A stretch of 41,492 nucleotides of DNA from Candidatus Enterousia excrementavium (GCA_017694175.1 JADINE010000028.1:1-41492), one strand, 5' to 3'. Shown: positions 1,357-41,283, numbered from the stretch's first letter. Program-made: numbers and translations. The notes: a model not told the origin generated them from the sequence alone.

Positions 1357-3663
<2,307 letters not shown>

Positions 3664-9027: not shown

Positions 9028-10541
9028 ATGCCATATTTCCCGCGGTTAATTGGGCGATAAGATAAAGCCTCGGCCAGGTCAGCCATTTCAATGTTATCCG
9101 CCCCGCGCAGGTCTGCAATTGTGCGTGCAATGCGGCGAATTCGGTTATAACCACGTGCAGACATTCCCATTTTTTCGGCGGCATCGTTCAGAAATTCGGT
9201 TAATTCGTGTGATAATGGCGCGGCTGCATCCAGTGCTGCACCATCCAGTTGCGCATTAGGCACGCCCTGGCGGGCGATTTGGCGATTGCGTGCGGCAACA
9301 ACACGCACACGAATTTGGGCAGATGTTTCCGCCGGTGTGTCGTCGTTTTTGTTCATATCCCACGGATTAACCGGGTCAACATCAACGTGTAAATCAATTC
9401 TGTCCAGCAACGGGCCAGAAATCTTGTTTTGATACGCTTCGGCGCATCTGGGCGCGCGGGAACAGGACAGCGCGGCATTTCCCAAATGCCCGCATGGACA
9501 TGGATTCATGGCGGCAATTAATTGAAATCGTGCAGGATATGTTGCAGTGCGTCGCGCGCGTGCAACCATGATTTTGCCGGCCTCCATCGGTTGGCGTAAA
9601 ATTTCCAAAGTGGCGCGATTAAATTCAGGCAGTTCGTCCAAGAATAAAACACCATTGTGTGCCAATGATATTTCGCCCGGGCGTGCATCTGCGCCGCCAC
9701 CCGCCAGTGATACCGCGCTGGATGTGTGATGCACACTGCGAAACGGGCGATTTGTAATCAAAGATTTTCCGTTTAATTGTCCGGCTATGGAATAAATAAT
9801 GGAAGTTTCCAAAATTTCGTCGGGCGTCATTTCTGGTAAAATCGTTGGCAATCGCGACGCCAGCATAGTTTTCCCAGACCCCGGCGGCCCAACCATAAGC
9901 ATCGCATGCCCGCCCGCTGCGGCAATTTCCAATGCGCGTTTTGCAGCGGCCTGGCCGTGAACTTCGGACATATCAATATGATTGTCGGGCTCGGGGGTAA
10001 AATGGTTCTGTTCCGGCACAGGCAAAATCTGAGTGCCTTTGAAATGATTAATTAATTCCAGCACGTGAAACGGCGCCAAAATATTTGTATGCCCGGCCCA
10101 GCGTGCCTCAGCCCCTTGGGCACCGGGACAGATTATTCCACGTTCATGTGCGTTTGCCCAAACACTGGCGGGTAAAACGCCATCCGTTTGCAGTATTGCG
10201 CCATTCAAACTGACCTCGCCGATAATGATGTATTTTTCCAATTCTGATTCAGGCAACACACCCATAGCGCAAAGAATGCCGCACAAAATCGGCAAATCAA
10301 AATGAGAACCTGATTTTTCAACGTCCGCCGGCGACAAGTTCACAGTCAATCGTTTTGGTGGCAACGATATATTTAATGCAGACAAAACATTTCTGATTCT
10401 TTCCGCAGATTCTTTGACCGCGCGATCCGCCAGTCCAATAATATTAAACTCTGGTTTGGCCAATCCTGCCGACAATTGAACCTGGACATCAATAGGTGTC
10501 GCATCCATTCCATTAAATATGATTGAATTCAAAGAAATCAT
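9021..10541 (-). CDS. comM: YifB/ComM family Mg-chelatase-like AAA+ ATPase
   Basis: Lon-protease-like N-terminal domain. Walker A GPPGSGKT, Walker B VLFLDELPEF. The C-terminal ChlI-like region ends ...YRPINRG. Confidence 0.88.
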   Translation of the reverse strand: MISLNSIIFNGMDATPIDVQVQLSAGLAKPEFNIIGLADRAVKESAERIRNVLSALNISLPPKRLTVNLSPADVEKSGSHFDLPILCGILCAMGVLPESELEKYIIIGEVSLNGAILQTDGVLPASVWANAHERGIICPGAQGAEARWAGHTNILAPFHVLELINHFKGTQILPVPEQNHFTPEPDNHIDMSEVHGQAAAKRALEIAAAGGHAMLMVGPPGSGKTMLASRLPTILPEMTPDEILETSIIYSIAGQLNGKSLITNRPFRSVHHTSSAVSLAGGGADARPGEISLAHNGVLFLDELPEFNRATLEILRQPMEAGKIMVARARRTATYPARFQLIAAMNPCPCGHLGNAALSCSRAPRCAEAYQNKISGPLLDRIDLHVDVDPVNPWDMNKNDDTPAETSAQIRVRVVAARNRQIARQGVPNAQLDGAALDAAAPLSHELTEFLNDAAEKMGMSARGYNRIRRIARTIADLRGADNIEMADLAEALSYRPINRGKYGIK

Positions 10542-25018: not shown

Positions 25019-25056
25019 ATGTCGTAATTTCCCGGAATATAATAAAAAAAGACCAC

Positions 25057-25085
25057 TTGACCTGAACTTTAAAATCGCTTAGAAT
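25057..25085 (+). promoter_or_regulatory. Candidate sigma70 promoter of the 25242 cysteine-rich protein gene
   Basis: TTGACC (25057-62), a 17-nt spacer, then TAGAAT (25080-85). Confidence 0.55.
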
Positions 25086-25107
25086 ACACAAGGTAAAGAA
25101 AACATTC

Positions 25108-25141
25108 ATGCCGAATACAAACGTACGTTTTTATTCGGCAT
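25108..25141. repeat. 34-nt near-perfect palindrome centred on AAACGTACGTTT
   Basis: ATGCCGAATA-C-AAACGTACGTTT-T-TATTCGGCAT, with one mismatch. It lies between the promoter and the start codon. Confidence 0.85.
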
Positions 25142-25200
25142 AATCAGGGGTTAAAAAAACGCGAAAAATTGGGACAAACGATAAATAAAAAAACGCCGAC

Positions 25201-25214
25201 AAAACGTACGTTTT
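25201..25214. repeat. Second AAAACGTACGTTTT palindrome (14 nt)
   Basis: GCCGAC-AAAACGTACGTTTTTTAT resembles the left half plus core of the first site (GCCGAATAC-AAACGTACGTTTTTAT). A third AACGTACGTT lies at 25471-25480 inside the CDS. Confidence 0.8.
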
Positions 25215-25241
25215 TTATCAACACGATAATCGGGGGGACAA

Positions 25242-25880
25242 ATGAACAAATATATGAATAAGTTTTTCTGTATGATTGCGGCCACAGTCGCATCATATGC
25301 GGTAAATATAGTATACAACCTGCACAGCGCATTCGCAGTCATATGGGAAACAGGCCAGGGCTGCGACGTATTTTATGTTACACGAACAAATACTATGTAC
25401 CTATCCACCACATGTACCAGGAGTTGTTCAACAGCACATTTCTATCTTAACATAATAACCCACTCTATGGAACGTACGTTACCGTCTGGGTATTCCAGAC
25501 TTGGATGCACATCGTACAACAGTGAATATTATTATGGCGGATGGTCATCTGCGGGTGCCACATGTTCATATGGTTCAACAGAGTTAATGTATTCACGCCC
25601 CAATGCCGTTTTTAAAACATTTGATTGCGGTACAGCAAAATGGTGCGATGGTGCCGGCTGGGTGGAAGTTCGTTGTAACACCGCCGGTAATGCCGGGTAT
25701 ATTTCTGGACCGTCTGGGTGTAATTGCTGCCCGGGTGCAATGTTGGGCGACGGCAGTTACAATGTATATGCGGACTATGATGCCAGAGCCGCGGCTGATT
25801 GCTATATAGTTGGGGAAATTAGAGACGAAACAGGTCTGTTTCAATACACAGACGATAACAGATGTTATTACGCTTCCTGA
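25242..25880 (+). CDS. Secreted cysteine-, tyrosine- and glycine-rich protein (family member 1), unknown function
   Basis: Signal-like N-terminus ending SAFA. 18 Cys. The C-terminal module CxxCPG...DCYI...DETGLFQYT...CYYAS-stop is shared with the fragment at 35552-35764. GGGGGG lies upstream of the ATG. Confidence 0.6.
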   Translation: MNKYMNKFFCMIAATVASYAVNIVYNLHSAFAVIWETGQGCDVFYVTRTNTMYLSTTCTRSCSTAHFYLNIITHSMERTLPSGYSRLGCTSYNSEYYYGGWSSAGATCSYGSTELMYSRPNAVFKTFDCGTAKWCDGAGWVEVRCNTAGNAGYISGPSGCNCCPGAMLGDGSYNVYADYDARAAADCYIVGEIRDETGLFQYTDDNRCYYAS

Positions 25881-25932: not shown

Positions 25933-27975
25933 ATGGTATTGCAATCTGTAAAAAAATTACTGGTTCTATATTATAAAACACGTAATGCAATTGGTCGTTG
26001 GCGGCTTGTGCGATACATAAGTTTTTGGCGGCACTTTTACCGCATACGTAAATTGGGGGTGCCGGTTATGACCTTGCGCATGGCGGCCAAGCACGGCATT
26101 CACGATATTTACCATTTGAACAAGGGGGTTGGCGACGGATTGGTTTTTGCCGGTGTCGCGCGCGAGTATTATAAAAAAACAGGCGTGCGTCCGTTGCTGT
26201 ATGTGCCACAGTGGAACGTATTTCGTAATTGTGATTTTTGCTGGTATTTGTTCGATTGGCGTTTGTTGCCTGAAAATGTAAAGGGCGCCCAACATACCAT
26301 GGATGTTTTTTACATATTTTATAACTTGCAATTAAGTGGCCACCGGTTAAAAGCGCGCAAAAATTTCGAATTTAATTTAAAGCCTTTGGAATACCTTAAA
26401 AACGCATATGTTTGTGGGAACATATTCACAAAATTGTTCGGCGGTTTTCCTATGCGCGGGCAAATGATGCAGTGGGTTGCAAATCGCATGGATTTAACCG
26501 GGGAAATAAATGTAAAACCAGAAATACGGCTTACACAATATGAAAAGGATTTCGGTAAATTTGCCAAAGGAAAAATAGTTATCAAATGTGGTGGCAATGG
26601 CCCATATAAATACCTTTTGCCTAAAATCGCCCAGGGCATTATTGATGAATTAAAGGGCGAATATGAATTTTTACAAATTGGTGATTTTGATGATCCTGTA
26701 TTAAATGGTGCGGAACAGTTGTTTAAATTAAACCTGCGCGAATTTGCCGGTGTTTTAACTCATGCGCGCATGTTCGTTGGCGCGATTGGTGGAATGATGC
26801 ATCTGGCGCGTGCGGTTGATTGCCCGGCTGTAATTTTGCACGGATGTGAACACGATGATTTTTATTATCCATCGCAACGCAAAGTTTTTTCCGAAAACAG
26901 ATGCATGTTATGTGTGCATCGCTGTTGGTGGCCCGACAAAGATGATGAACGTCGTTGCCCAAACCGTTATCGTTGCATAGTTGACTTTGATGTTAAACGC
27001 GTTGCAAAAATTATTCGTGAAGAAATGAAAAAGCCGCGCGAAATGGCGGCTGCGCCTGATTTGTTCAAATGTGTTGGCCATATTGTTGATTGCAACAGTT
27101 CGATGAATTGGTGGATGAATTTGGATGATTTTATCACTGATTTTGCGTGGCCGACCCAGGCGGACGAATGCCGCACTGATGGGTTGTATTCACAATCTTT
27201 TGATTATACTGCCGTCCGTCCGGATTACAGCAAATACGCCATTACACAAATGTTGGACGAGCCTGTAAATGTTGGTGCGATGATTGATGGCATGGAATAT
27301 GTAAATAAATTCGCATCTGATAATCCATTTGTAATTCGTTTACAACCGCGCCCATCTTATTTCGCATACGTTGCCAAAATTGCAGACATGCAAAAACAAT
27401 GGACGGCCGAGTGGCATAAATTGGAACCTGTGGATGATATTAAATATTGGCGTAATGAAACCAAACCGAAACCAGAATATGCCACACTGGAAGGTTACGC
27501 CCGTGCAAACCACATGATGAATTTTTTCTTGTGGCATACCGAAGATACAGCGCGTCGCCGTGATGTGCCGGATTCTGTGATTGCAGACGCCAAACATAAA
27601 ATTGATAATTACAATCAATTGCGCAATGATTTTGCAGAAAAAATGGATGAAACAATGATTCAAATTTTGGGGCCTGCGTTGCCCGGCGCGTTCAAAGCGC
27701 CACTGAACACAGAATCATTGGGCATGGTTTTGGACAGATTATCGATTTTGGCGCTTAAAATGTATCATATGGAAGAACAATCTCGTAAACGTGAAAATCG
27801 TCAAAAATGTTTGGAAAAATTAAAGGTGTTACAACAGCAGCGTTTGGAATTGCTGGAAGCGACAAAATATCTTTTGGTTGATTTTATGAATGGTTCGCGT
27901 CAACCACGTGCGTATTACCAACATAAAATGTACAACGATCCAAAATTGAATCCGGAATTATCCGGCCGAAAATAA
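25933..27975 (+). CDS. GT9-like (heptosyltransferase-fold) glycosyltransferase fused to a C-terminal DUF4254-like domain
   Basis: GT-B C-lobe-like region GGNGPYKYL...GAIGGMMHLARAVDCPAVILHG, followed by the GT9-typical Cys cluster CMLCVHRC...C.....C. The C-terminus FFLWHTEDTARRRD...KHKIDNYNQLRND...TESLGMVLDRLSILALKMYHMEEQ resembles DUF4254, from memory. Confidence 0.6.
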   Translation: MVLQSVKKLLVLYYKTRNAIGRWRLVRYISFWRHFYRIRKLGVPVMTLRMAAKHGIHDIYHLNKGVGDGLVFAGVAREYYKKTGVRPLLYVPQWNVFRNCDFCWYLFDWRLLPENVKGAQHTMDVFYIFYNLQLSGHRLKARKNFEFNLKPLEYLKNAYVCGNIFTKLFGGFPMRGQMMQWVANRMDLTGEINVKPEIRLTQYEKDFGKFAKGKIVIKCGGNGPYKYLLPKIAQGIIDELKGEYEFLQIGDFDDPVLNGAEQLFKLNLREFAGVLTHARMFVGAIGGMMHLARAVDCPAVILHGCEHDDFYYPSQRKVFSENRCMLCVHRCWWPDKDDERRCPNRYRCIVDFDVKRVAKIIREEMKKPREMAAAPDLFKCVGHIVDCNSSMNWWMNLDDFITDFAWPTQADECRTDGLYSQSFDYTAVRPDYSKYAITQMLDEPVNVGAMIDGMEYVNKFASDNPFVIRLQPRPSYFAYVAKIADMQKQWTAEWHKLEPVDDIKYWRNETKPKPEYATLEGYARANHMMNFFLWHTEDTARRRDVPDSVIADAKHKIDNYNQLRNDFAEKMDETMIQILGPALPGAFKAPLNTESLGMVLDRLSILALKMYHMEEQSRKRENRQKCLEKLKVLQQQRLELLEATKYLLVDFMNGSRQPRAYYQHKMYNDPKLNPELSGRK

Positions 27976-31135: not shown

Positions 31136-31164
31136 TTGCATTAAATTCGATAACAGGGTAACAT
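31136..31164 (+). promoter_or_regulatory. Weak candidate sigma70 promoter for leader A
   Basis: TTGCAT, a 17-nt spacer, then TAACAT. Confidence 0.3.
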
Positions 31165-31281
31165 AAATACGTCAATGGGTGTTCCATTGATGGGGTGTGA
31201 CTACCCGAATATCAGCGTCGGAATACGCGCCTGTGGTGCGCCTTGGCGTGCTGCTGTGCCGCGGATTAAGACGATAAACGG

Positions 31282-31387
31282 CTCCTGGCATTTGGTCAGG
31301 AGGGTCGTGAATATCCAATAAGCGGCACAATTTCTGATAGTTGTAGTCAACCTCCTGACCACCAAAATTTTTTGGTGGCTCTTTTTT
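31282..31387 (+). promoter_or_regulatory. Candidate cis-regulatory leader RNA, copy A (switch helix, 67-nt stem-loop, intrinsic terminator)
   Basis: CTCCTG (31282-87) can pair with CAGGAG (31297-302). Alternatively GGTCAGGAGG (31294-303) pairs with CCTCCTGACC (31351-360). The terminator CCACCAAA/TTTGGTGG plus CTCTTTTTT spans 31359-31387 and ends 23 nt before the ATG. It is homologous to 35935-36037. Confidence 0.6.
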
Positions 31388-31410
31388 GCAAAAAACAACA
31401 GGGGGCCTTG

Positions 31411-32223
31411 ATGAATAAAATTTTGTGTATACTTATGATGATACTGCTTGTACCAACACCATCGTTTGCACGGATAAAGTTGCGTGCCGGGGATAATAAT
31501 CGATGTTTTGTTAATGTAAAAGACACAAACCAGTTTTGGTATTGTGGCACCCAGGATTCAACGTGTGCCGGTAAAAAATTGCGTAAATATCATAAAAGAT
31601 GGTGGCAATACCATGGTGAAGGCTTTGACTCAGGGGAGGGGCGACATTTTTGGTGCTGTGGCGGGTCCACCACGGCCCAGGGGCATTATGTTGAAACCTG
31701 GGACCCCTTTTACAGTCGCGAAACTGTAACGGTTGATTTGCCAAATGGCACATGCACATATGAAAGAATCACAAATGTTTGTGGCGAAGTTATCGACGAG
31801 CCTTGCACAGAACCAACTGAATGTGATGCCGGCCTGATTTTGCGAAACGGCCAGTGCGTTGCCCCGTGCGATGGCACAACCGCATTTGCCAGCAAAACTT
31901 CGAACGAATGTGTGGAATGTGCAACAACAGCATACCAGGGAATTGACGACAAAACAAACGAATGTGTACGCTGTGATTCAGGCACTCAATTTTTCGACAA
32001 GGAAACAAAAACCTGTGTGTCAAAAACATCCCCGTCGCTTAAAAAAGTGACTGCTGCCACCATGAAAAAGTGTTACGGGTGTCCAAACAGTGATGTGTTC
32101 AAAGAATGTACAACGTTGTTCAGCAAATCTGACACGGAACGACGCGCGGCGGAAAATTACGAACGAATTATTTCGGAATGCTACATAGACGACAGACCAA
32201 CCACCGCCGCATCAGACGAATAA
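31411..32223 (+). CDS. Secreted cysteine-rich protein (family member 2), unknown function
   Basis: Signal peptide MNKILCILMMILLVPTPSFA. 29 Cys, including FWCCGG and EGF/furin-like spacing (CTEPTECDAGLILRNGQCVAPC..., CVECATTAYQG...CVRCDSGTQF...C). AGGGGG lies upstream of the ATG. Confidence 0.6.
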   Translation: MNKILCILMMILLVPTPSFARIKLRAGDNNRCFVNVKDTNQFWYCGTQDSTCAGKKLRKYHKRWWQYHGEGFDSGEGRHFWCCGGSTTAQGHYVETWDPFYSRETVTVDLPNGTCTYERITNVCGEVIDEPCTEPTECDAGLILRNGQCVAPCDGTTAFASKTSNECVECATTAYQGIDDKTNECVRCDSGTQFFDKETKTCVSKTSPSLKKVTAATMKKCYGCPNSDVFKECTTLFSKSDTERRAAENYERIISECYIDDRPTTAASDE

Positions 32224-34586: not shown

Positions 34587-35516
34587 ATGAAAAAAGTACT
34601 GTCTTTGGCTGTGTTGACAGCGGTGCTGGCCGGATGCACGGATTTAAGCACCACCAGTAACACCAGCGGCATGAACGGCTATGCGGCCGATGGTTTTGGT
34701 GAAGAAACATTAATCACCACAGATGAATCGTTAAATAATACATATTTGCTTGCGCCTGCGCCAAAATATTATGTTGGCAGCGCGTACAAGGTAGAAGATG
34801 TTCAATACATCCCAGTCGAAGATTTAACATACAATCAAACTGGCATTGCGGGAATTATTCCAGCTGAATTGAACGGCACAAAAACAAGCAATGGCGAAGT
34901 GTTCGACATGAATCAAATGGTTGCAACAAGCAAAACATTACCATTGCCAACAATTGCACGCGTAACTAATTTGGACAACGGACAATCTGTTGTTGTTCGT
35001 GTGAATAATCGTGGTCCATTTGTGAATACTCGTATTATGGACTTGTCGCCGGCCGCGGCCGCGAAAATTGGCATGAATGGCCAGACCAAGGTTCAAGTTC
35101 AGGTTATGGCAAATGAATCAATTGCGGTTAAAAATGCAACTGTTGGTGCAACAACACCGGCGCAACCGGTCGTGCAACAGCCTGTTGTTCAGCAGCAACC
35201 TGCCCAGGTTGTGGAAACAACAGTTGTAACAACAACAACTGCACCGGGCGCAACGGTTACGCCGGCGGCGACATATGGCGAATACAGTGTCCAGGTTGCG
35301 GCATTCTATGCCCAGGACAGTGCGGATTCATTGGCGGCCCGTATGGCGCGCTATGGTAACACCACCGTTGTCCAGGAAGGCGACATGTACAAAGTGCGTA
35401 TCGTTAATCTGGATGCGTCCCAGGCACGCAGTGTAATTGACGCCCTGCGTAATAACGAAGGCTTGGCGCCGGGGTTGCTGCGTAACGGTCGTTGGATAAA
35501 TGCAGACAGTATTTAA
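34587..35516 (+). CDS. rlpA: Septal-ring lytic transglycosylase RlpA with C-terminal SPOR domain
   Basis: Lipobox LAGC. DPBB core TSNGEVFD...ATSKTLPLPTIARVTNLDNGQSVVVRVNNRGPF. A Q/P/V/T-rich linker. SPOR-like region YSVQVAAF...YKVRIVNL. Confidence 0.88.
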   Translation: MKKVLSLAVLTAVLAGCTDLSTTSNTSGMNGYAADGFGEETLITTDESLNNTYLLAPAPKYYVGSAYKVEDVQYIPVEDLTYNQTGIAGIIPAELNGTKTSNGEVFDMNQMVATSKTLPLPTIARVTNLDNGQSVVVRVNNRGPFVNTRIMDLSPAAAAKIGMNGQTKVQVQVMANESIAVKNATVGATTPAQPVVQQPVVQQQPAQVVETTVVTTTTAPGATVTPAATYGEYSVQVAAFYAQDSADSLAARMARYGNTTVVQEGDMYKVRIVNLDASQARSVIDALRNNEGLAPGLLRNGRWINADSI

Positions 35517-35526
35517 TTAAAAAAAT

Positions 35527-35548
35527 GGGGCTTCGGCCCCGTTTTTTA
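35527..35548 (+). terminator. Intrinsic terminator after rlpA
   Basis: GGGGC-TTCG-GCCCC followed by GTTTTTTATTTT. Confidence 0.85.
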
Positions 35549-35551
35549 TTT

Positions 35552-35764
35552 TGTGCCATTGCTACTTTTAGTGTTGATTTACCGCGCGCTGGGTATTATG
35601 GCGATGCAGGGAACTATGGGCGGAATTGCACAAAATGCCCCGGAAGTGGTACATCCGCAGCAGGTTCAACCAGTATTACAGACTGCTATATGCCATCTGG
35701 TTCCACCGGCAGTGATTCCAGCGGCACGTTTATATATACGTCAACTTGTTATTATTCTAATTAA
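35552..35764 (+). pseudogene. Start-less C-terminal fragment of a cysteine-rich family gene
   Basis: This frame reads ...LPRAGYYGDAGNYGRNCTKCPGSGTSAAGSTSITDCYMPSGSTGSDSSGTFIYTSTCYYSN-stop. That is one GYY..C..CP repeat plus the C-terminal module shared with 25242-25880. There is no in-frame ATG, GTG or TTG between the rlpA terminator and the internal Met. Confidence 0.55.
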
Positions 35765-35767
35765 ATA

Positions 35768-35790
35768 CACCGCCCGTTTGGGCGGTGATT
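35768..35790 (+). terminator. Intrinsic terminator after the fragment
   Basis: CACCGCCC-GTTT-GGGCGGTG, followed by a T-rich tail. Confidence 0.7.
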
Positions 35791-35851
35791 CTTGATATTT
35801 TTTGACCGCCACAAATAATTCATATTTTTGTGGCGCGGCGTTTCATAATTG

Positions 35852-35860
35852 TGATATAAT
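35852..35860 (+). promoter_or_regulatory. Candidate extended -10 promoter for leader B
   Basis: TGATATAAT (TGn plus TATAAT) with no convincing -35. An 8-bp inverted repeat GCCACAAA/TTTGTGGC lies just upstream at 35808-35834. Confidence 0.45.
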
Positions 35861-35934
35861 ACACATAACCCGATACAAAAGCATTGGGCCGGGGCGTCGA
35901 AACCCCATCTAACGTGTTCGCAAAGAACAAAAAA

Positions 35935-36037
35935 CTCCAAACCAGGGTTGGAGGGGGTGAATATATTGAATAAGCCCGCTATCTCGTTAGATGTAGTTTC
36001 GAACCTCCAGCCGCTTGAATGTTTCAGCGGTTTTTTT
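35935..36037 (+). promoter_or_regulatory. Candidate cis-regulatory leader RNA, copy B (switch helix, 67-nt stem-loop, intrinsic terminator)
   Basis: CTCCAA (35935-40) can pair with TTGGAG (35948-53). Alternatively GGTTGGAGG (35946-54) pairs with CCTCCAGCC (36004-12). The terminator CCGCT...AGCGG plus TTTTTTT spans 36011-36037 and ends 14 nt before the ATG. It shares the blocks GTGAATAT, AATAAGC, TAGnTGTAGT and AACCTCC with copy A. Confidence 0.6.
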
Positions 36038-36051
36038 AGGGGGATTTTTAC

Positions 36052-38013
36052 ATGTTCTTGCGACGGGCTGTCATTATGTCGTGCGTATTTTTGTTGGTTG
36101 GCTATGTTCAAATTGCCCACGCGGTTACATGTGACGCCAACCAGTATATTGACGGCGATTTTTGCTATACATGCCCGGCAAACGCAACATGCGACGGAAT
36201 AAATTTTACATGTAACGATGGTTGGTTCAAAGACGGAACCGCTTGTGTTCAGTGCTCGGTGACGAATGCGACATGCAGCGGCCCTGACGATTACAGTTGT
36301 TTGCCTGGATACTATGATAACAATGGTGCGTGCAACGTATGCCCCGAAAATGCGTCGTGCGTCGGCGGACACGAAACCTTCCATTGCAATTCTGGGTGGT
36401 ATAAATTCAAACAAACTTGTTATTCATGCACCGGCCATGTTTGCGATGGCGAAACGGTGATAAGTTGCGGCCCAGGTTTTTGGAAATATGGAGATTACTG
36501 TTATCCGTGTAATATGGACATGGAATATTGCCCGGGTGGCACTGATCACAGAATTTGTAATGTTGGCTGGTACAGAGATGGCCAAGGAAATTGCAGGGAG
36601 TGTCCAGCTGGTTATTATTGTCCGCTTGATACAAACTATAATACGATGCACGACCATTGTGCCGCTGGATATTACCGTTCAGGCAACAGTTGCACTAAAT
36701 GTGCCGATGGCGTTGTTTGTCCCGGTGGTATATTGGATGAAATGACGTGCCCCAACGGATTATTTAAACATGATAATGGTCAATGCTTGCCTTATGCACA
36801 GGGCGATTGTGGCATTGCCCCAAATTGTAATCCGGGCTGTTGGGATAACGGCGGCGAATGCGTTAAATGTTCGGTTGAAAATGCAACATGTACAAACGGG
36901 GATGATTTTACATGTAATGCCGGATATTATAACAGTGGCGCGACGTGCGAAATATGCCCCCCAAATTCAGATTGCCCGACCGGCAGTACGCAAATATCCT
37001 GTTTACCGGGATATTATTTGGACGGAAACGAATGCCCGCAATGCGGCAGGGGACCTGTTTATTGCATTGACAATGCAAAATACGATTGCCCTGAATATGT
37101 CCCCGGCAGTTTAACCCCATATTTACCCAGTGGCCATGAAGTAATATACACATCAGGATATCAAGCTATTGACGGCCCAACACAATCTTTGCCTGACAGG
37201 TGTACCATTTCAACCATACAAATTTCCGCACCCCAGGGATTATACGAGAAAAAATGGACTTATTGGCGCAGCACTACAAACGCATACAGTGGTTTTGGGG
37301 CGACGTATTGGTATGCCGCAAAGGCGGGATATTATTTATCGGGCAGTAACTTGGTTAATAATGTGCAATATTATAAGCAAGTCAATCCCTGTACCAACGG
37401 TGCCGATAATTCGTATTACACTGGCCCCGGTTCCCCAGACGGCAATGATTGCCCGTGGGTCTGCAACGATGGATTTTATCGCGATGGCAATGAATGTCTG
37501 ACTTGCCCGCCTGGCATGGAATGTGTTGGCGGGGGTGTTGTATGCCCAATTGGAATGTACGCAGACAAAAATCAATGCTTGCCATGCCCAAATGGGTACA
37601 CAGATGCTCAAAACGACGGGGCACAATCAATTGAATTTTGTTTTAAAAAGTGCGATGGCGGTTCTTATATTGCCGCCGCTGAATCAAATGTGTGTGAAAA
37701 TGTAGGCCCAGGATACTGGATTGGCGAAAATTACACAGGATATGGCGCTGTTGGTACGCGCAATATGTGTGATGGCGGAATGACTACGCTGGGGTATGGT
37801 ATTGGTGCCGATGAACCCACTGATTGTGGCCGCACTTTGCATGTTGGTGACACATCCGTGCATTTACGCAGCGGTCGCCAAACTACGCCTGCGCTGATTG
37901 TGCAATATGAAAACCAAAAATTTTATGGCAATATGGCACAAAACGCCCAGGGACACGTAAAAATTCGGGTTGGCGATGTCACATATTCTGTGTACGACGA
38001 TTCAATGCAATAA
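36052..38013 (+). CDS. Large secreted cysteine-rich repeat protein (family member 3) with eukaryote-like furin/ephrin-receptor/VSP-like repeats
   Basis: Signal peptide MFLRRAVIMSCVFLLVGYVQIAHA. It has more than 70 Cys. The unit C-x2-C-[PS]-x-N-[AS]-x-C-x-G....C..G[WY][YF]..G..C recurs (CYTCPANATC, CVQCSVTNATC, CNVCPENASC, CVKCSVENATC, CEICPPNSDC). The last ~60 aa contain no Cys. Confidence 0.7.
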   Translation: MFLRRAVIMSCVFLLVGYVQIAHAVTCDANQYIDGDFCYTCPANATCDGINFTCNDGWFKDGTACVQCSVTNATCSGPDDYSCLPGYYDNNGACNVCPENASCVGGHETFHCNSGWYKFKQTCYSCTGHVCDGETVISCGPGFWKYGDYCYPCNMDMEYCPGGTDHRICNVGWYRDGQGNCRECPAGYYCPLDTNYNTMHDHCAAGYYRSGNSCTKCADGVVCPGGILDEMTCPNGLFKHDNGQCLPYAQGDCGIAPNCNPGCWDNGGECVKCSVENATCTNGDDFTCNAGYYNSGATCEICPPNSDCPTGSTQISCLPGYYLDGNECPQCGRGPVYCIDNAKYDCPEYVPGSLTPYLPSGHEVIYTSGYQAIDGPTQSLPDRCTISTIQISAPQGLYEKKWTYWRSTTNAYSGFGATYWYAAKAGYYLSGSNLVNNVQYYKQVNPCTNGADNSYYTGPGSPDGNDCPWVCNDGFYRDGNECLTCPPGMECVGGGVVCPIGMYADKNQCLPCPNGYTDAQNDGAQSIEFCFKKCDGGSYIAAAESNVCENVGPGYWIGENYTGYGAVGTRNMCDGGMTTLGYGIGADEPTDCGRTLHVGDTSVHLRSGRQTTPALIVQYENQKFYGNMAQNAQGHVKIRVGDVTYSVYDDSMQ

Positions 38014-38839: not shown

Positions 38840-39733
38840 ATGGACAAAACATATTCAGGATTTATTGCAATTGTTGGCCCAACAAATGCGGGCAAAAGTA
38901 CACTGTTAAACCAAATCATGGGACGTAAAGTTTCCATCGTTTCGCACAAAGTGCAAACGACGCGTACAAACCTGCGGGCGGTAAAAATGGTGGGCAATCG
39001 GCAATTGATTTTTGTCGATACGCCGGGCATTTTCCGCCCAGCACGCCGATTGGACAGGGCTATGGTTGGTGCTGCAATGGATGCAACGGGTGATGCAGAT
39101 GCAATTTTATTGGTGATTGATGCGCAAAAGGGCATAACCGGCACCGTGCGCGGATTGGTTGAAAAAATCCGCAACCATAAAAATTTGTTTGTTGCCTTGA
39201 ACAAGGTTGACGCCGTATCAAAGCCTGATTTATTGCCAATTACTGCGGAAATAAATGAAATTGCACATCCGCGCGATATTTTTATGATTTCGGCGTTAAA
39301 AAACGATGGCGTGGATGAAATGCTGGGCGCGTTGGCGGCCGTTATGCCGGCCGGGCCTTATTTATTTGAAGCGCACGACGCAACGGATGTGCCGGATAAT
39401 TTATATTTGGCGGAATTGACGCGCGAAAAGATTTATAAATATATTCACCAGGAATTGCCATATCATATCAATGTGGTGACTGAACGGGTTGAAGTTGCAG
39501 ATGATGGTGTTTTGGATATATATCAAAAAATCGCAGTGCGCAGCGATGCACATAAAAAAATAGTTATCGGACGTGGTGGCGCACAATTAAAGAAAATTGG
39601 CACCGCCGCCCGACATGATATTCAAGACCAATGGGGCGTAAATGCGCGCCTGCATTTGTTCGTGCGCGTTGAACCAAATTGGGAAGATATGGCCGAAAAT
39701 TACACGGACCAGGGTTTGGAATTTAAGAAATAA
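38840..39733 (+). CDS. era: GTPase Era
   Basis: G1 GPTNAGKSTLLN, G3 DTPG, G4 NKVD and a C-terminal KH domain (VIGRGGAQLKKIG). The start is at MDKTYSGF, preceded by GGGGG. Confidence 0.92.
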   Translation: MDKTYSGFIAIVGPTNAGKSTLLNQIMGRKVSIVSHKVQTTRTNLRAVKMVGNRQLIFVDTPGIFRPARRLDRAMVGAAMDATGDADAILLVIDAQKGITGTVRGLVEKIRNHKNLFVALNKVDAVSKPDLLPITAEINEIAHPRDIFMISALKNDGVDEMLGALAAVMPAGPYLFEAHDATDVPDNLYLAELTREKIYKYIHQELPYHINVVTERVEVADDGVLDIYQKIAVRSDAHKKIVIGRGGAQLKKIGTAARHDIQDQWGVNARLHLFVRVEPNWEDMAENYTDQGLEFKK

Positions 39734-41283
39734 TGTTACATACTTCTGATTTTGATTTTGAATTACCACCCGAATTAATCGCGTCGCACCCACTGCAACA
39801 ACGCGACGCCTCGCGCATGTTGGTGGTAATGCCGTCGCATTCTGGCACATGGGACAATGCGGTCAGAGATACCGCCAATTATAAAACATTGCCATTTAAT
39901 CCAAAGCTGTTGAACCGTGCCCGCGAATTGCGCAAGGCAGGCAGTTTGCCAGAAGCGTTATTATGGCGCGAAATCAGTGGCAAGAAATTAAACGGATTGG
40001 ATTTTGAGCGTCAAAAAATAATTGGAAATTATATTGTCGATTTTTTTTGTGCGTCAAATTTAATTGTTGTTGAAATAGATGATAAATCCACACACGACAA
40101 TAAATGGAAATATGATGAAAAGCGTGACGAATACTTGCGCGGATTGGGATTGACAGTAATACATATTGCCGCATCAGACGTGTTAAAAAATCCTCACGAC
40201 GTCTTTGTCGGGCTCTCTAACCACCCCGCCTTTCAGGCACCCCTCCAACGGAGGAGAACTGGGCCCGCGACCGATGATACCAAGTTCCCCTCTGCGGAGG
40301 GGTGGCCGCAGGCCGGGGTGGTCAGTGGCGATAATGTCACACTGGCGGACAAGCATATCCGCAATTTTGTGGATTATCTGCAACCGGGCGATGTGGTTGT
40401 GTTTAATAATTCACGTGTAATTCCGGCGCGTTTTGATGCTGCGGATTCCCGTGGCGCGTCGCATGAAATAACATTGCACACGGCCGAAAATAATCGTGTT
40501 TGGTGGGGGCTGTGCAAAAAATTTAATAAAATTCCGTTGGGCGAAATTCTGACGCTGGACGATGGCACAACCGTGCGCGTGTTGGATAAAAACGACGACA
40601 GCGGATTAAAATTGGAATTTCTGTGCGATAATATTTTCGCAGTGTTGGACGCAGTGGGTAAAATGCCGTTGCCACCGTATATGAAGCGCGAAGCGGAAAC
40701 ATCCGACCGCGAACGTTATCAAACGGTGTATGCAGACCCCATCGGTTCGATGGCGGCACCCACGGCCGGATTGCATTTTACGCCTGAATTAATGGATGAA
40801 ATTGAACGCCGTGGCGCAAAAATAGTAAAAATAACCCTGCACGTTGGCGCGGGCACATGGATGCCGGTAAAAACAGAAAATTTGAACGAACATAAAATGC
40901 ACAGTGAATGGTGCTGTATCACACCCGCCCAGGCTGATATAATTAACAACGCAAAACGTGTAATCGCGGTTGGAACAACGTCTATGCGCACGCTGGAAAG
41001 TGCGGCAATGGATAACTGTAATTTGCCGGAATTTGCGCGTTGCAAACGCGTTTCGCCAATTTGTCGCAGCACCGATATTTTTATCACGCCGGGATATAAG
41101 TTTCGTGCAGTTGATGTACTGCTGACGAATTTTCATTTACCAAAATCAACATTGTTTATGTTGGTGTCGGCGTTCAGTGGCCTGGACGAAATGAAGACTG
41201 CGTATGCGCATGCGGTCGCCGAAAAATATCGCTTTTTTTCATACGGCGATTGCTGTTTGTTATTCAAAAAGGAAAATGCGTAA
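39733..41283 (+). CDS. queA: S-adenosylmethionine:tRNA ribosyltransferase-isomerase QueA, carrying an in-frame DUF559 insertion
   Basis: QueA blocks are present: DFDFELPPELIA, PGDVVVFNNSRVIPAR, PLPPYM, YQTVYA, AAPTAGLHFT, VGTTSMRTLES, TNFHLPKSTL and YRFFSYGD. It is 516 aa against about 350 aa for typical QueA. The ATG overlaps the era stop (TAATG). Confidence 0.9.
   Translation: MLHTSDFDFELPPELIASHPLQQRDASRMLVVMPSHSGTWDNAVRDTANYKTLPFNPKLLNRARELRKAGSLPEALLWREISGKKLNGLDFERQKIIGNYIVDFFCASNLIVVEIDDKSTHDNKWKYDEKRDEYLRGLGLTVIHIAASDVLKNPHDVFVGLSNHPAFQAPLQRRRTGPATDDTKFPSAEGWPQAGVVSGDNVTLADKHIRNFVDYLQPGDVVVFNNSRVIPARFDAADSRGASHEITLHTAENNRVWWGLCKKFNKIPLGEILTLDDGTTVRVLDKNDDSGLKLEFLCDNIFAVLDAVGKMPLPPYMKREAETSDRERYQTVYADPIGSMAAPTAGLHFTPELMDEIERRGAKIVKITLHVGAGTWMPVKTENLNEHKMHSEWCCITPAQADIINNAKRVIAVGTTSMRTLESAAMDNCNLPEFARCKRVSPICRSTDIFITPGYKFRAVDVLLTNFHLPKSTLFMLVSAFSGLDEMKTAYAHAVAEKYRFFSYGDCCLLFKKENA
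39865..40323 (+). other. In-frame DUF559 (Vsr-like very-short-patch endonuclease fold) domain insertion within queA
   Basis: LNRARELRKAGSLPEALLWREI...LDFERQKIIGNYIVDFFCASNLIVVEIDD..H......YDEKRDEYLRGLGLTVIHIAASDVL matches the DUF559 pattern. It is followed by a locally GC-rich tail with hairpins (CCTCC-AAC-GGAGG, CCCCTC-TGCG-GAGGGG) of the kind seen at DUF559 gene ends. Confidence 0.7.

Follow-up and report, generated by a model that had tools for sequence, protein, structure and literature searches.

A family of pseudoknotted leader RNAs with a predicted terminator switch upstream of secreted cysteine-rich protein genes in uncultured Alphaproteobacteria

We analyzed a 41,492-nucleotide (nt) stretch of DNA from Candidatus Enterousia excrementavium (GCA_017694175.1, JADINE010000028.1:1-41492; hereafter the window) and found that positions 35852-36051 encode a folded leader RNA with a predicted terminator switch, directly 5' of a gene for a 653-amino-acid (aa) cysteine-rich protein. 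This element, copy B, has a relative in the same window (copy A, 31136-31410), and both belong to an RNA family whose helices covary, among them two pseudoknots and two alternative helices that share one strand. We consider copy B to be a cis-acting 5' leader with a conditional terminator that is OFF by default, with a probability of roughly 60%. That the family acts as a cis-regulatory switch in the broader sense is highly probable, and the chance that its effector is a small molecule is somewhat below even.

All parts of copy B lie on the + strand. The extended -10 promoter element (TGATATAAT, 35852-35860) suggests a transcription start at ~35866-35868, ~7 nt past it, in agreement with the leader of ~185 nt proposed in an initial annotation of this DNA. 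The 5' hairpin P0 (CCCGAU...AUUGGG, 35869-35888) comes first; nearly all members of the family have a hairpin here, with differing sequence. Next is the Pa hairpin (35891-35906, GGGG 35891-94 paired with CCCC 35903-06), whose 8-nt loop contains the 5' strand of P1a (UCGAAA, 35897-35902), followed by the 5' strand of P1b (AUCUAACG, 35907-35914), the P2 hairpin (UGUUC...GAACA, 35915-35929) and an A-rich linker (35930-35934, conserved as aaa). The competitor strand X'1 (CUCCAA, 35935-35940) pairs with the central switch strand X (GGUUGGAGG, 35946-35954) as the hairpin P3, which in the DNA of copy B is CTCCAA with TTGGAG (35948-35953). P4 (GGG:CCC, 35955-35977) closes a near-invariant 17-nt loop (UGAAUAUAUUGAAUAAG, 35958-35974), and P5 (35978-35997, GCUAU 35978-82 paired with GUAGU 35993-97) carries the 3' strand of P1b in its loop (CGUUAGAU, 35985-35992). 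The 3' strand of P1a (UUUCGA, 35997-36002) forms a pseudoknot with the Pa loop, and a single A separates it from X'2 (CCUCCAGCC, 36004-36012). X'2 is the alternative partner of X and the 3' strand of the antiterminator helix X:X'2, which in copy B joins GGTTGGAGG (35946-35954) to CCTCCAGCC (36004-36012).

The CCUCC of X'2 resembles an anti-Shine-Dalgarno sequence, and the last 4 nt of the strand begin the intrinsic terminator (36009-36037). The latter comprises a 7-bp stem (AGCCGCU 36009-36015 with AGCGGUU 36026-36032) and three inner pairs, then U7 (36031-36037); a simple terminator scanner overlooked it because the loop exceeds the scanner's limit, and a separate scan for hairpins with U-runs found it. 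A Shine-Dalgarno sequence (AGGGGGA, 36038-36044) and the ATG at 36052 of the secreted 653-aa protein (36052-38013) follow. A reading of the sequence from 35500 to 36300 together with an inverted-repeat scan recovered every copy B element listed in the initial annotation, and its terminator stem CCGCT/AGCGG extends to AGCCGCT/AGCGGTT. The RNA structure it described holds for the helix called P1 (X:X'2) and for the CTCCAA:TTGGAG hairpin. It missed the upstream half of the element (P0, Pa and the pseudoknot helices P1a and P1b), the 35-nt long-range complementarity of 35887-35921 with 35978-36012 that the inverted-repeat scan reveals, and the potential masking of the Shine-Dalgarno sequence by the CCUCC of X'2.

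To describe the family, a covariance model (R1) was built from 42 aligned leaders with helices annotated by hand, P0 being left out. R1 detected 75 instances at E<1e-6 in a 681-kb sequence set of orthologous loci and metagenome contigs, including four tandem pairs, three divergent pairs and copies missed by a shared-motif pattern search, which had returned 68 metagenome stretches, ~60 of them genuine. Applied to a plain MAFFT alignment, RNAalifold retrieved no helices other than Pa, P3, P5 and the terminator; the rest depended on the hand-annotated structure and realignment with the covariance model. Leaders of the family are ~170 nt long and stand mainly before genes for secreted or surface proteins in uncultured gut Alphaproteobacteria; one metagenome contig name states human gut.

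The pairing is strongly maintained. In the 75-sequence alignment, 95% of cells are standard-paired, versus 37-50% when partners are slid by 1-3 columns; double-sided changes occur at 24 of 30 pairs, and none of 500 shuffles attains any of the observed measures. Double changes affect all four pairs of Pa (90% paired) and all five of P2 (93% paired). P4 stem pair 151:203 is GC in 39 sequences, UA in 24 and CG in nine, and P5 is 98% paired, with pair 208:226 being UA in 43 and AU in 28. P1a reaches 97% pairing, and four of its five pairs each show 24-38 double changes; the alignment is unbiased towards this helix since P1a is absent from the structure of the covariance model. The register of P1b varies, and this helix was therefore tested sequence by sequence: the best contiguous duplex averages 6.6 bp between a leader's own strands versus 3.3 bp between non-cognate strands, and duplexes of at least 6 bp form in 83% of leaders versus 1.7% of non-cognate pairs. 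The leader thus contains a structured domain of seven covarying helices, 90-98% paired, in which Pa/P1a and P5/P1b are two interlocked hairpin-type pseudoknots.

The switch is built of three mutually complementary strands, X'1, X and X'2. P3 (X'1:X) is 95% paired, with AU to UA and AU to GC changes 14 times each at columns 118:140 and 119:139, and X:X'2 is 97% paired, with 13 changes from UA to AU and 10 from UA to CG. X'1 and X'2 covary with the same X positions. Because X'1:X and X:X'2 both compensate at these positions, two mutually exclusive helices are under selection, and the two helices of the initial annotation, P1 and the CTCCAA:TTGGAG hairpin, are both maintained by compensatory changes. 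A hairpin with a U-run stands directly past X'2 in 71 of the 74 distinct leaders. The initial annotation had also proposed for copies A and B that extending P1 by a few pairs would consume the 5' strand of the terminator; an overlap of this strand with the last 3-4 nt of X'2 is present in 61 of the 74 (AGCC, 36009-36012, in copy B). The leader therefore has an expression platform of two mutually exclusive alternatives, X'1:X and X:X'2, with X'2 overlapping the terminator. When X:X'2 is enforced, only a remnant of the terminator is left (GCU/AGC plus GAA/UUC), to which the U-run is no longer adjacent. A terminator that formed whatever the state of P1 would have spoken against a switch; no intact terminator forms with P1 enforced.

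X'2 may act a second time, on translation. In the minimum-free-energy folds of copies A and B, the CCUCC left free in X'2 is paired to the GGGGG of the Shine-Dalgarno sequence, and the same pairing is predicted in 44 of 59 family members, which suggests that X'2 would mask the ribosome-binding site. At least 97% conservation is reached at 29 of the 132 model positions, mostly in the P4 loop, X and X'; in conservation, X, X'1 and X'2 far exceed P1a and P1b. A dual role of X'2, with CCUCC as the mask and AACC as the base of the terminator, would explain the high conservation of the three strands. The P4 loop contains two GAAUAW half-sites, a direct repeat GAAUAU..GAAUAA with three variable bases between them.

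The position of the leader relative to promoters and genes is also regular. The promoter that the initial annotation had placed before the leader has counterparts across the family: 48 of 72 members have a match of at least 5/6 to TATAAT at 25-50 nt (mode 25-26) before Pa, and in 22 of these the TGn is present as well. A Shine-Dalgarno sequence and the start of an open reading frame (ORF) lie 34-127 nt past the model match in most copies, and ~85% of copies have a co-oriented ORF behind them, nearly always within ~130 nt of the model match. Two classical kinds of leader were considered and rejected. A leader-peptide attenuator is not supported, as an AUG is present at the P0/Pa junction in less than half of the copies and the frames through P4 stop at variable places. 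A T-box is not supported either: no Rfam T-box match was obtained for copies A and B and 20 other leaders, and the downstream genes are unrelated.

Copy A is a long subtype of the family, identified from the covariance model and the sequence. It stands on the + strand past a tRNA-Arg gene and its terminator, 5' of a 270-aa cysteine-rich ORF (31411-32223). Its parts are a promoter (31136-64), P0 (31171-91), Pa and P1a (31192-31207), X'1 (31282-87), X (31294-31303), the P4 loop (31308-22), X'2 (31351-60), a terminator of its own (31359-87) and a GGGGG Shine-Dalgarno sequence (31400-05), and it shares with copy B the series CUCC..GGAGG..GUGAAUAU..AAUAAGC..UGUAGU..AACCUCC. Copy A was spotted by eye and then confirmed with R1; BLASTN of copy B against the window did not recover it. 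R1 scores 105.7 bits for copy B (35889-36014) and 60.8 bits for copy A (31190-31362), and everything else in the window stays at or below 12 bits, also with the search filters off, so the window holds only these two copies. Compared with shuffled sequences, the fold of copy A has z = -4.2 and that of the 186-nt copy B leader z = -2.9. These fold z-scores and the covariance-model scores of both copies place the element beyond chance.

The 653-aa protein has ~40 full-length homologue clusters, unnamed or hypothetical, from genomes of uncultured Alphaproteobacteria, and Pfam gave it only a sub-threshold TNFR/ELAPOR1-like match. The upstream regions of the orthologous genes sort into four groups: a near-unchanged copy B leader (L001, L002, L005, L009-L011 and L089), a copy-A-like leader (L015), a divergent 'C-type' leader (L007 and L008) and no leader upstream (L004, L006, L012, L013, L016-18, L088 and L090). 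Identity among orthologues is 89-91% in the leader versus 67-76% in the coding sequence and ~50% in the DNA further upstream, and the same leader is retained in an orthologue with 45% protein identity. Together with the 75 homologues, the excess of leader over coding identity bears out the proposal that this is a functional leader rather than a passively duplicated untranslated region.

Several contigs carry two or three copies. Complete leaders stand in tandem before one ORF in four cases and back-to-back and divergent in three (L083 4712-5023, L041 6057-6395, L031 431-780, L012 2193-2519, L060, L020 and L074). Tandem arrangement is known among riboswitches.

The genes behind the leaders largely encode surface or secreted proteins. 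A signal-peptide-like N-terminus is present in 46 of the 64 distinct ORFs downstream, and many of the proteins contain 5-14% cysteine. In a Pfam search of 52 downstream proteins we found adhesin-type Listeria-Bacteroides repeats (three), a YadA anchor, EGF-like domains and XRE-type helix-turn-helix regulators (four to five); there was no transporter family, and the DNA methylase HsdM/N6_Mtase was the sole enzyme match. These 52 proteins do not point to a shared ligand or pathway. Since the downstream genes are mostly for secreted, often cysteine-rich or adhesin-like proteins and small regulators of the XRE type, without transporters and with one methylase only, a signaling molecule or a dedicated factor is favored over a metabolite as the effector.

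We propose the following mechanism for copy B. The nascent RNA would fold P0, Pa, P2 and X'1:X (P3) first, then P4 and P5, and P1a (Pa loop with the strand past P5) and P1b (strand past Pa with the P5 loop) would lock the double pseudoknot. If P3 persisted, X'2 would stay free, its last four bases would seed the terminator and its CCUCC could pair with the Shine-Dalgarno sequence; in this OFF state, transcription would end at the U-run (36031-36037) and any read-through message would be poorly translated. If X were instead captured by X'2 (9 bp, stacked beside P1a), the base of the terminator would be lost and the Shine-Dalgarno sequence freed, and the 653-aa secreted cysteine-rich protein would be made. 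We infer that the switch is ON when X:X'2 forms and that the core with its pseudoknots and the P4 loop, which is invariant, mediate the action of an effector. In its elaborate, conserved core with pseudoknots, its expression platform and its occurrence in tandem, the leader resembles riboswitches, and its regulon of accessory genes resembles those of second-messenger riboswitches. Our best guess is an ON-type riboswitch for a signaling small molecule, for example a nucleotide second messenger. A fuller version, to which we attach only a limited probability, is a new riboswitch class whose double-pseudoknot aptamer senses a signaling molecule (a cyclic di- or oligonucleotide, or an alarmone) and, through many copies per genome, switches on a secreted and adhesin-like surface proteome together with small XRE regulators in an uncultured, host-associated lineage of Alphaproteobacteria; the C-type leaders with another P4 would sense a second signal.

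The mechanism is favored by a small local energy difference between the ON and OFF folds, -30.7 against -26.8 kcal/mol in copy B and -33.2 against -32.9 kcal/mol in copy A. Several points weigh against it, and the evidence is computational throughout. The energies leave pseudoknots and co-transcriptional kinetics out of account. The pairing of CCUCC with the Shine-Dalgarno sequence is expected from sequence alone and is beyond the reach of covariation. The conservation of X, X'1 and X'2 is unusually high for a mere switching helix and may reflect constraints on Shine-Dalgarno and anti-Shine-Dalgarno sequences or a factor acting in trans. The direct repeat of the P4 loop would also suit a dimeric RNA-binding protein, the C-type leaders hold the core and the switch with another P4, and the regulated genes offer no coherent clue to a ligand. 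Finally, a few copies lack a close co-oriented ORF (none for L008 9490-9620, none within ~240 nt for L004 2986-3113).

The C-type leaders (L007 2800-3050 and L008 9750-10000), which R1 does not detect, keep P0, Pa, P1a, P1b, P5 and the terminator. Their three-strand switch is CCCCGA / UCGGGG / CCCCGAC, P4 is swapped for a longer hairpin in which UAUAAAACACGG..CCGAAAGAC is conserved, and further hairpins stand upstream. The L008 copy without an ORF (9460-9650) has a promoter and a terminator; the C-type leader, which has a promoter of its own, follows ~100 nt downstream. The L004 copy (2986-3113, - strand) has no recognizable terminator and points at the 3' end of an HU gene; its nearest candidate ORF is ~244 nt off and overlaps the HU gene antisense. 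Two further sets of sequences, L022/L051/L057 and L048/L080, match the motif pattern, including a P4-like hairpin with a GAAUAU..GAAUA loop, in other surroundings, with an outer helix of 14 bp in L022 and its near-identical relatives and a different 3' half in L048 and L080. R1 gives them E = 0.01-0.3, and they may be distant relatives or chance matches. The pattern also matched once in viral contigs, inside a capsid gene; this was a false positive, and an association with phages was dropped.

The strongest alternative, if still an unlikely one, retains the whole architecture and assigns the role of effector to a dedicated RNA-binding protein or a trans-acting RNA, which would read either the P4 loop, at its two GAAUAW half-sites, or X'1 together with the A-rich linker, and tip the balance between X'1:X and X:X'2 in the way of the Bgl/Sac antiterminators that bind a ribonucleic antiterminator (RAT), of PyrR, or of tRNA at a T-box. 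The P4 loop suits such a reader, being a contiguous near-invariant stretch of 17 nt in which only the middle three vary within a direct repeat, and P4 has been exchanged as a module in the C-type leaders. The conservation of X, X'1 and X'2, far above that of P1a and P1b, and a regulon of accessory genes (surface proteins, XRE regulators, HsdM) without a pathway fit it as well. However, leaders read by proteins are usually one or two simple hairpins, whereas seven covarying helices including two pseudoknots are present here. None of the loci read links the leaders to a gene for a candidate protein, and the ~680-kb sequence set contains no site complementary to the P4 loop outside the leaders, which speaks against a trans-acting RNA.

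It is improbable that the terminated ~170-nt transcript functions in its own right, as a multi-copy small RNA with CCUCC motifs that act in trans on Shine-Dalgarno sequences, read-through being incidental. Anti-Shine-Dalgarno small RNAs have been reported in Alphaproteobacteria; each unit here has its own promoter and a strong terminator, each RNA has two CCUCC-type motifs, and the L008 and L004 copies without a close ORF would be natural under this explanation. On the other hand, the CCUCC motifs are base-paired inside the RNA, and the three-way covariation with the terminator overlap is what a cis-switch predicts. The closely following co-oriented ORF in ~85% of copies and the persistence of the leader with its gene down to 45% protein identity also disfavor it. 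A constitutive attenuator or insulator without an effector, giving a fixed low read-through or responding to RNA polymerase speed, NusA/NusG or temperature, is very improbable: the nearly iso-energetic ON and OFF folds make a fixed partition conceivable and the gene content gives no ligand clue, but such a device would need neither a double-pseudoknot core with 29 near-invariant positions nor tandem duplication, and selection maintains both alternative helices.

The mode of action of the favored cis-acting switch is of a known kind, a riboswitch-like terminator/antiterminator leader. The pbuE (ydhL) adenine riboswitch is an ON-type transcriptional riboswitch in which, as here, one strand serves both as the 3' side of a structured domain's closing helix and as the 5' side of the terminator, and termination is prevented once the helix forms. 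The leader described here differs from it in its unrelated fold, with a double pseudoknot and the P4 loop, in lacking an Rfam purine match, in the additional upstream competitor X'1 that pre-sequesters the helix, and in the anti-Shine-Dalgarno-like character of the shared strand. Like the trp and his attenuators (1:2, 2:3, 3:4), the leader uses successive complementary segments, X'1:X plus the terminator (plus X'2 with the Shine-Dalgarno sequence) against X:X'2; unlike them, it has a large conserved tertiary domain and no conserved positions of AUG, GUG or stop codons. The cyclic di-GMP-I and -II riboswitches (GEMM) are likewise present many times in a genome, at times in tandem, before poorly characterized secreted, surface and adhesin genes rather than metabolic ones, but there is no match to them in sequence or structure, nor in Rfam at E<=10 for copies A and B or E<=1 for 20 other leaders. 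SAM-II, preQ1-II and fluoride aptamers are H-type pseudoknot riboswitches, in which a hairpin loop likewise pairs with a remote strand and an A-rich strand can make groove contacts; the present RNA has two interlocked pseudoknots across ~100 nt and a separate switching helix.

Rfam 15 has no entry for the RNA family itself, whose two pseudoknots interlock and whose three-strand switch has a shared strand that resembles an anti-Shine-Dalgarno sequence. At gathering thresholds, Rfam 15 finds only two tRNAs in the whole window, and in E-value mode it gives no relevant family for copies A and B and 20 other leaders. sRNA-Xcc1 (RF02221), the sole Rfam model with even a weak match to copy B, resembles the leader in having an outer 9-bp helix that encloses two hairpins, but copy B scores only 24.4 bits (E = 0.049), far below the gathering score of 53, and neither copy A nor the 20 other members match; we take the copy B match as chance. 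A literature look-up of narrow reach matched no paper, which does not establish absence from the literature.

Other features of the window and of orthologous loci were noted alongside the leaders. The inverted repeat that the initial annotation had seen upstream of copy B and proposed as an operator is present (CGCCACAAA/TTTGTGGCG, 35807-35835, 9 bp, 100% complementary), just upstream of the -10 and overlapping the -35 region. The repeat is absent from the orthologous promoters; the operator role was dropped for this reason, and the repeat probably lies outside the conserved element. Among the orthologues without a leader, five (L006, L016, L017, L018 and L090) share an upstream block ~170 nt before the gene, in which an inverted repeat of 17-18 bp (TTAAACGGTGGTTTTTTT ... 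AAAAAAACCACCGTTTAA) flanks ~70 bp in which a -35-like TTGAAT occurs; the identical block recurs with three paralogues of one genome. It may represent an invertible promoter, or else form a long hairpin in RNA.

The region 35553-35787, between rlpA and copy B, holds a short frame that ends in ...GTFIYTSTCYYSN at 35764, like the C-terminus (...CYYAS) of a 212-aa ORF at 25242-25880. Lacking a signal peptide and a credible start, and followed by its own terminator-like hairpin (35768-35787), this frame is probably the remnant of another cysteine-rich gene. The 212-aa ORF, the third cysteine-rich ORF of the window, has no leader copy upstream; the region before it (25024-25241) contains a hairpin (GCCGAATA...TATTCGGC), a repeated AACGTACGTTTTT segment and then a GGGGGG Shine-Dalgarno sequence. 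In a 680-aa protein (25933-27975), a region of glycosyltransferase family 9 (heptosyltransferase-like) is joined to a C-terminal DUF4254. The 516-aa QueA (S-adenosylmethionine:tRNA ribosyltransferase-isomerase, 39733-41283) contains, at residues 59-158, a DUF559 endonuclease-like domain that precedes most of the Queuosine_synth match (best stretch 200-510).

The design of the leader is unusual in that one strand, CCUCCAACC, would serve as antiterminator partner, terminator base and Shine-Dalgarno mask, with a second identical strand upstream as its competitor. If the proposed reading is true, a widespread regulatory RNA family outside Rfam 15 operates in a lineage known only from metagenomes of the human gut and other sources. 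It would provide copy-by-copy control of most of the secreted, cysteine-rich and adhesin-like proteins, those likeliest to touch the host, and would offer a defined RNA of ~130-170 nt with which to seek the signal by which these bacteria remodel their surface.
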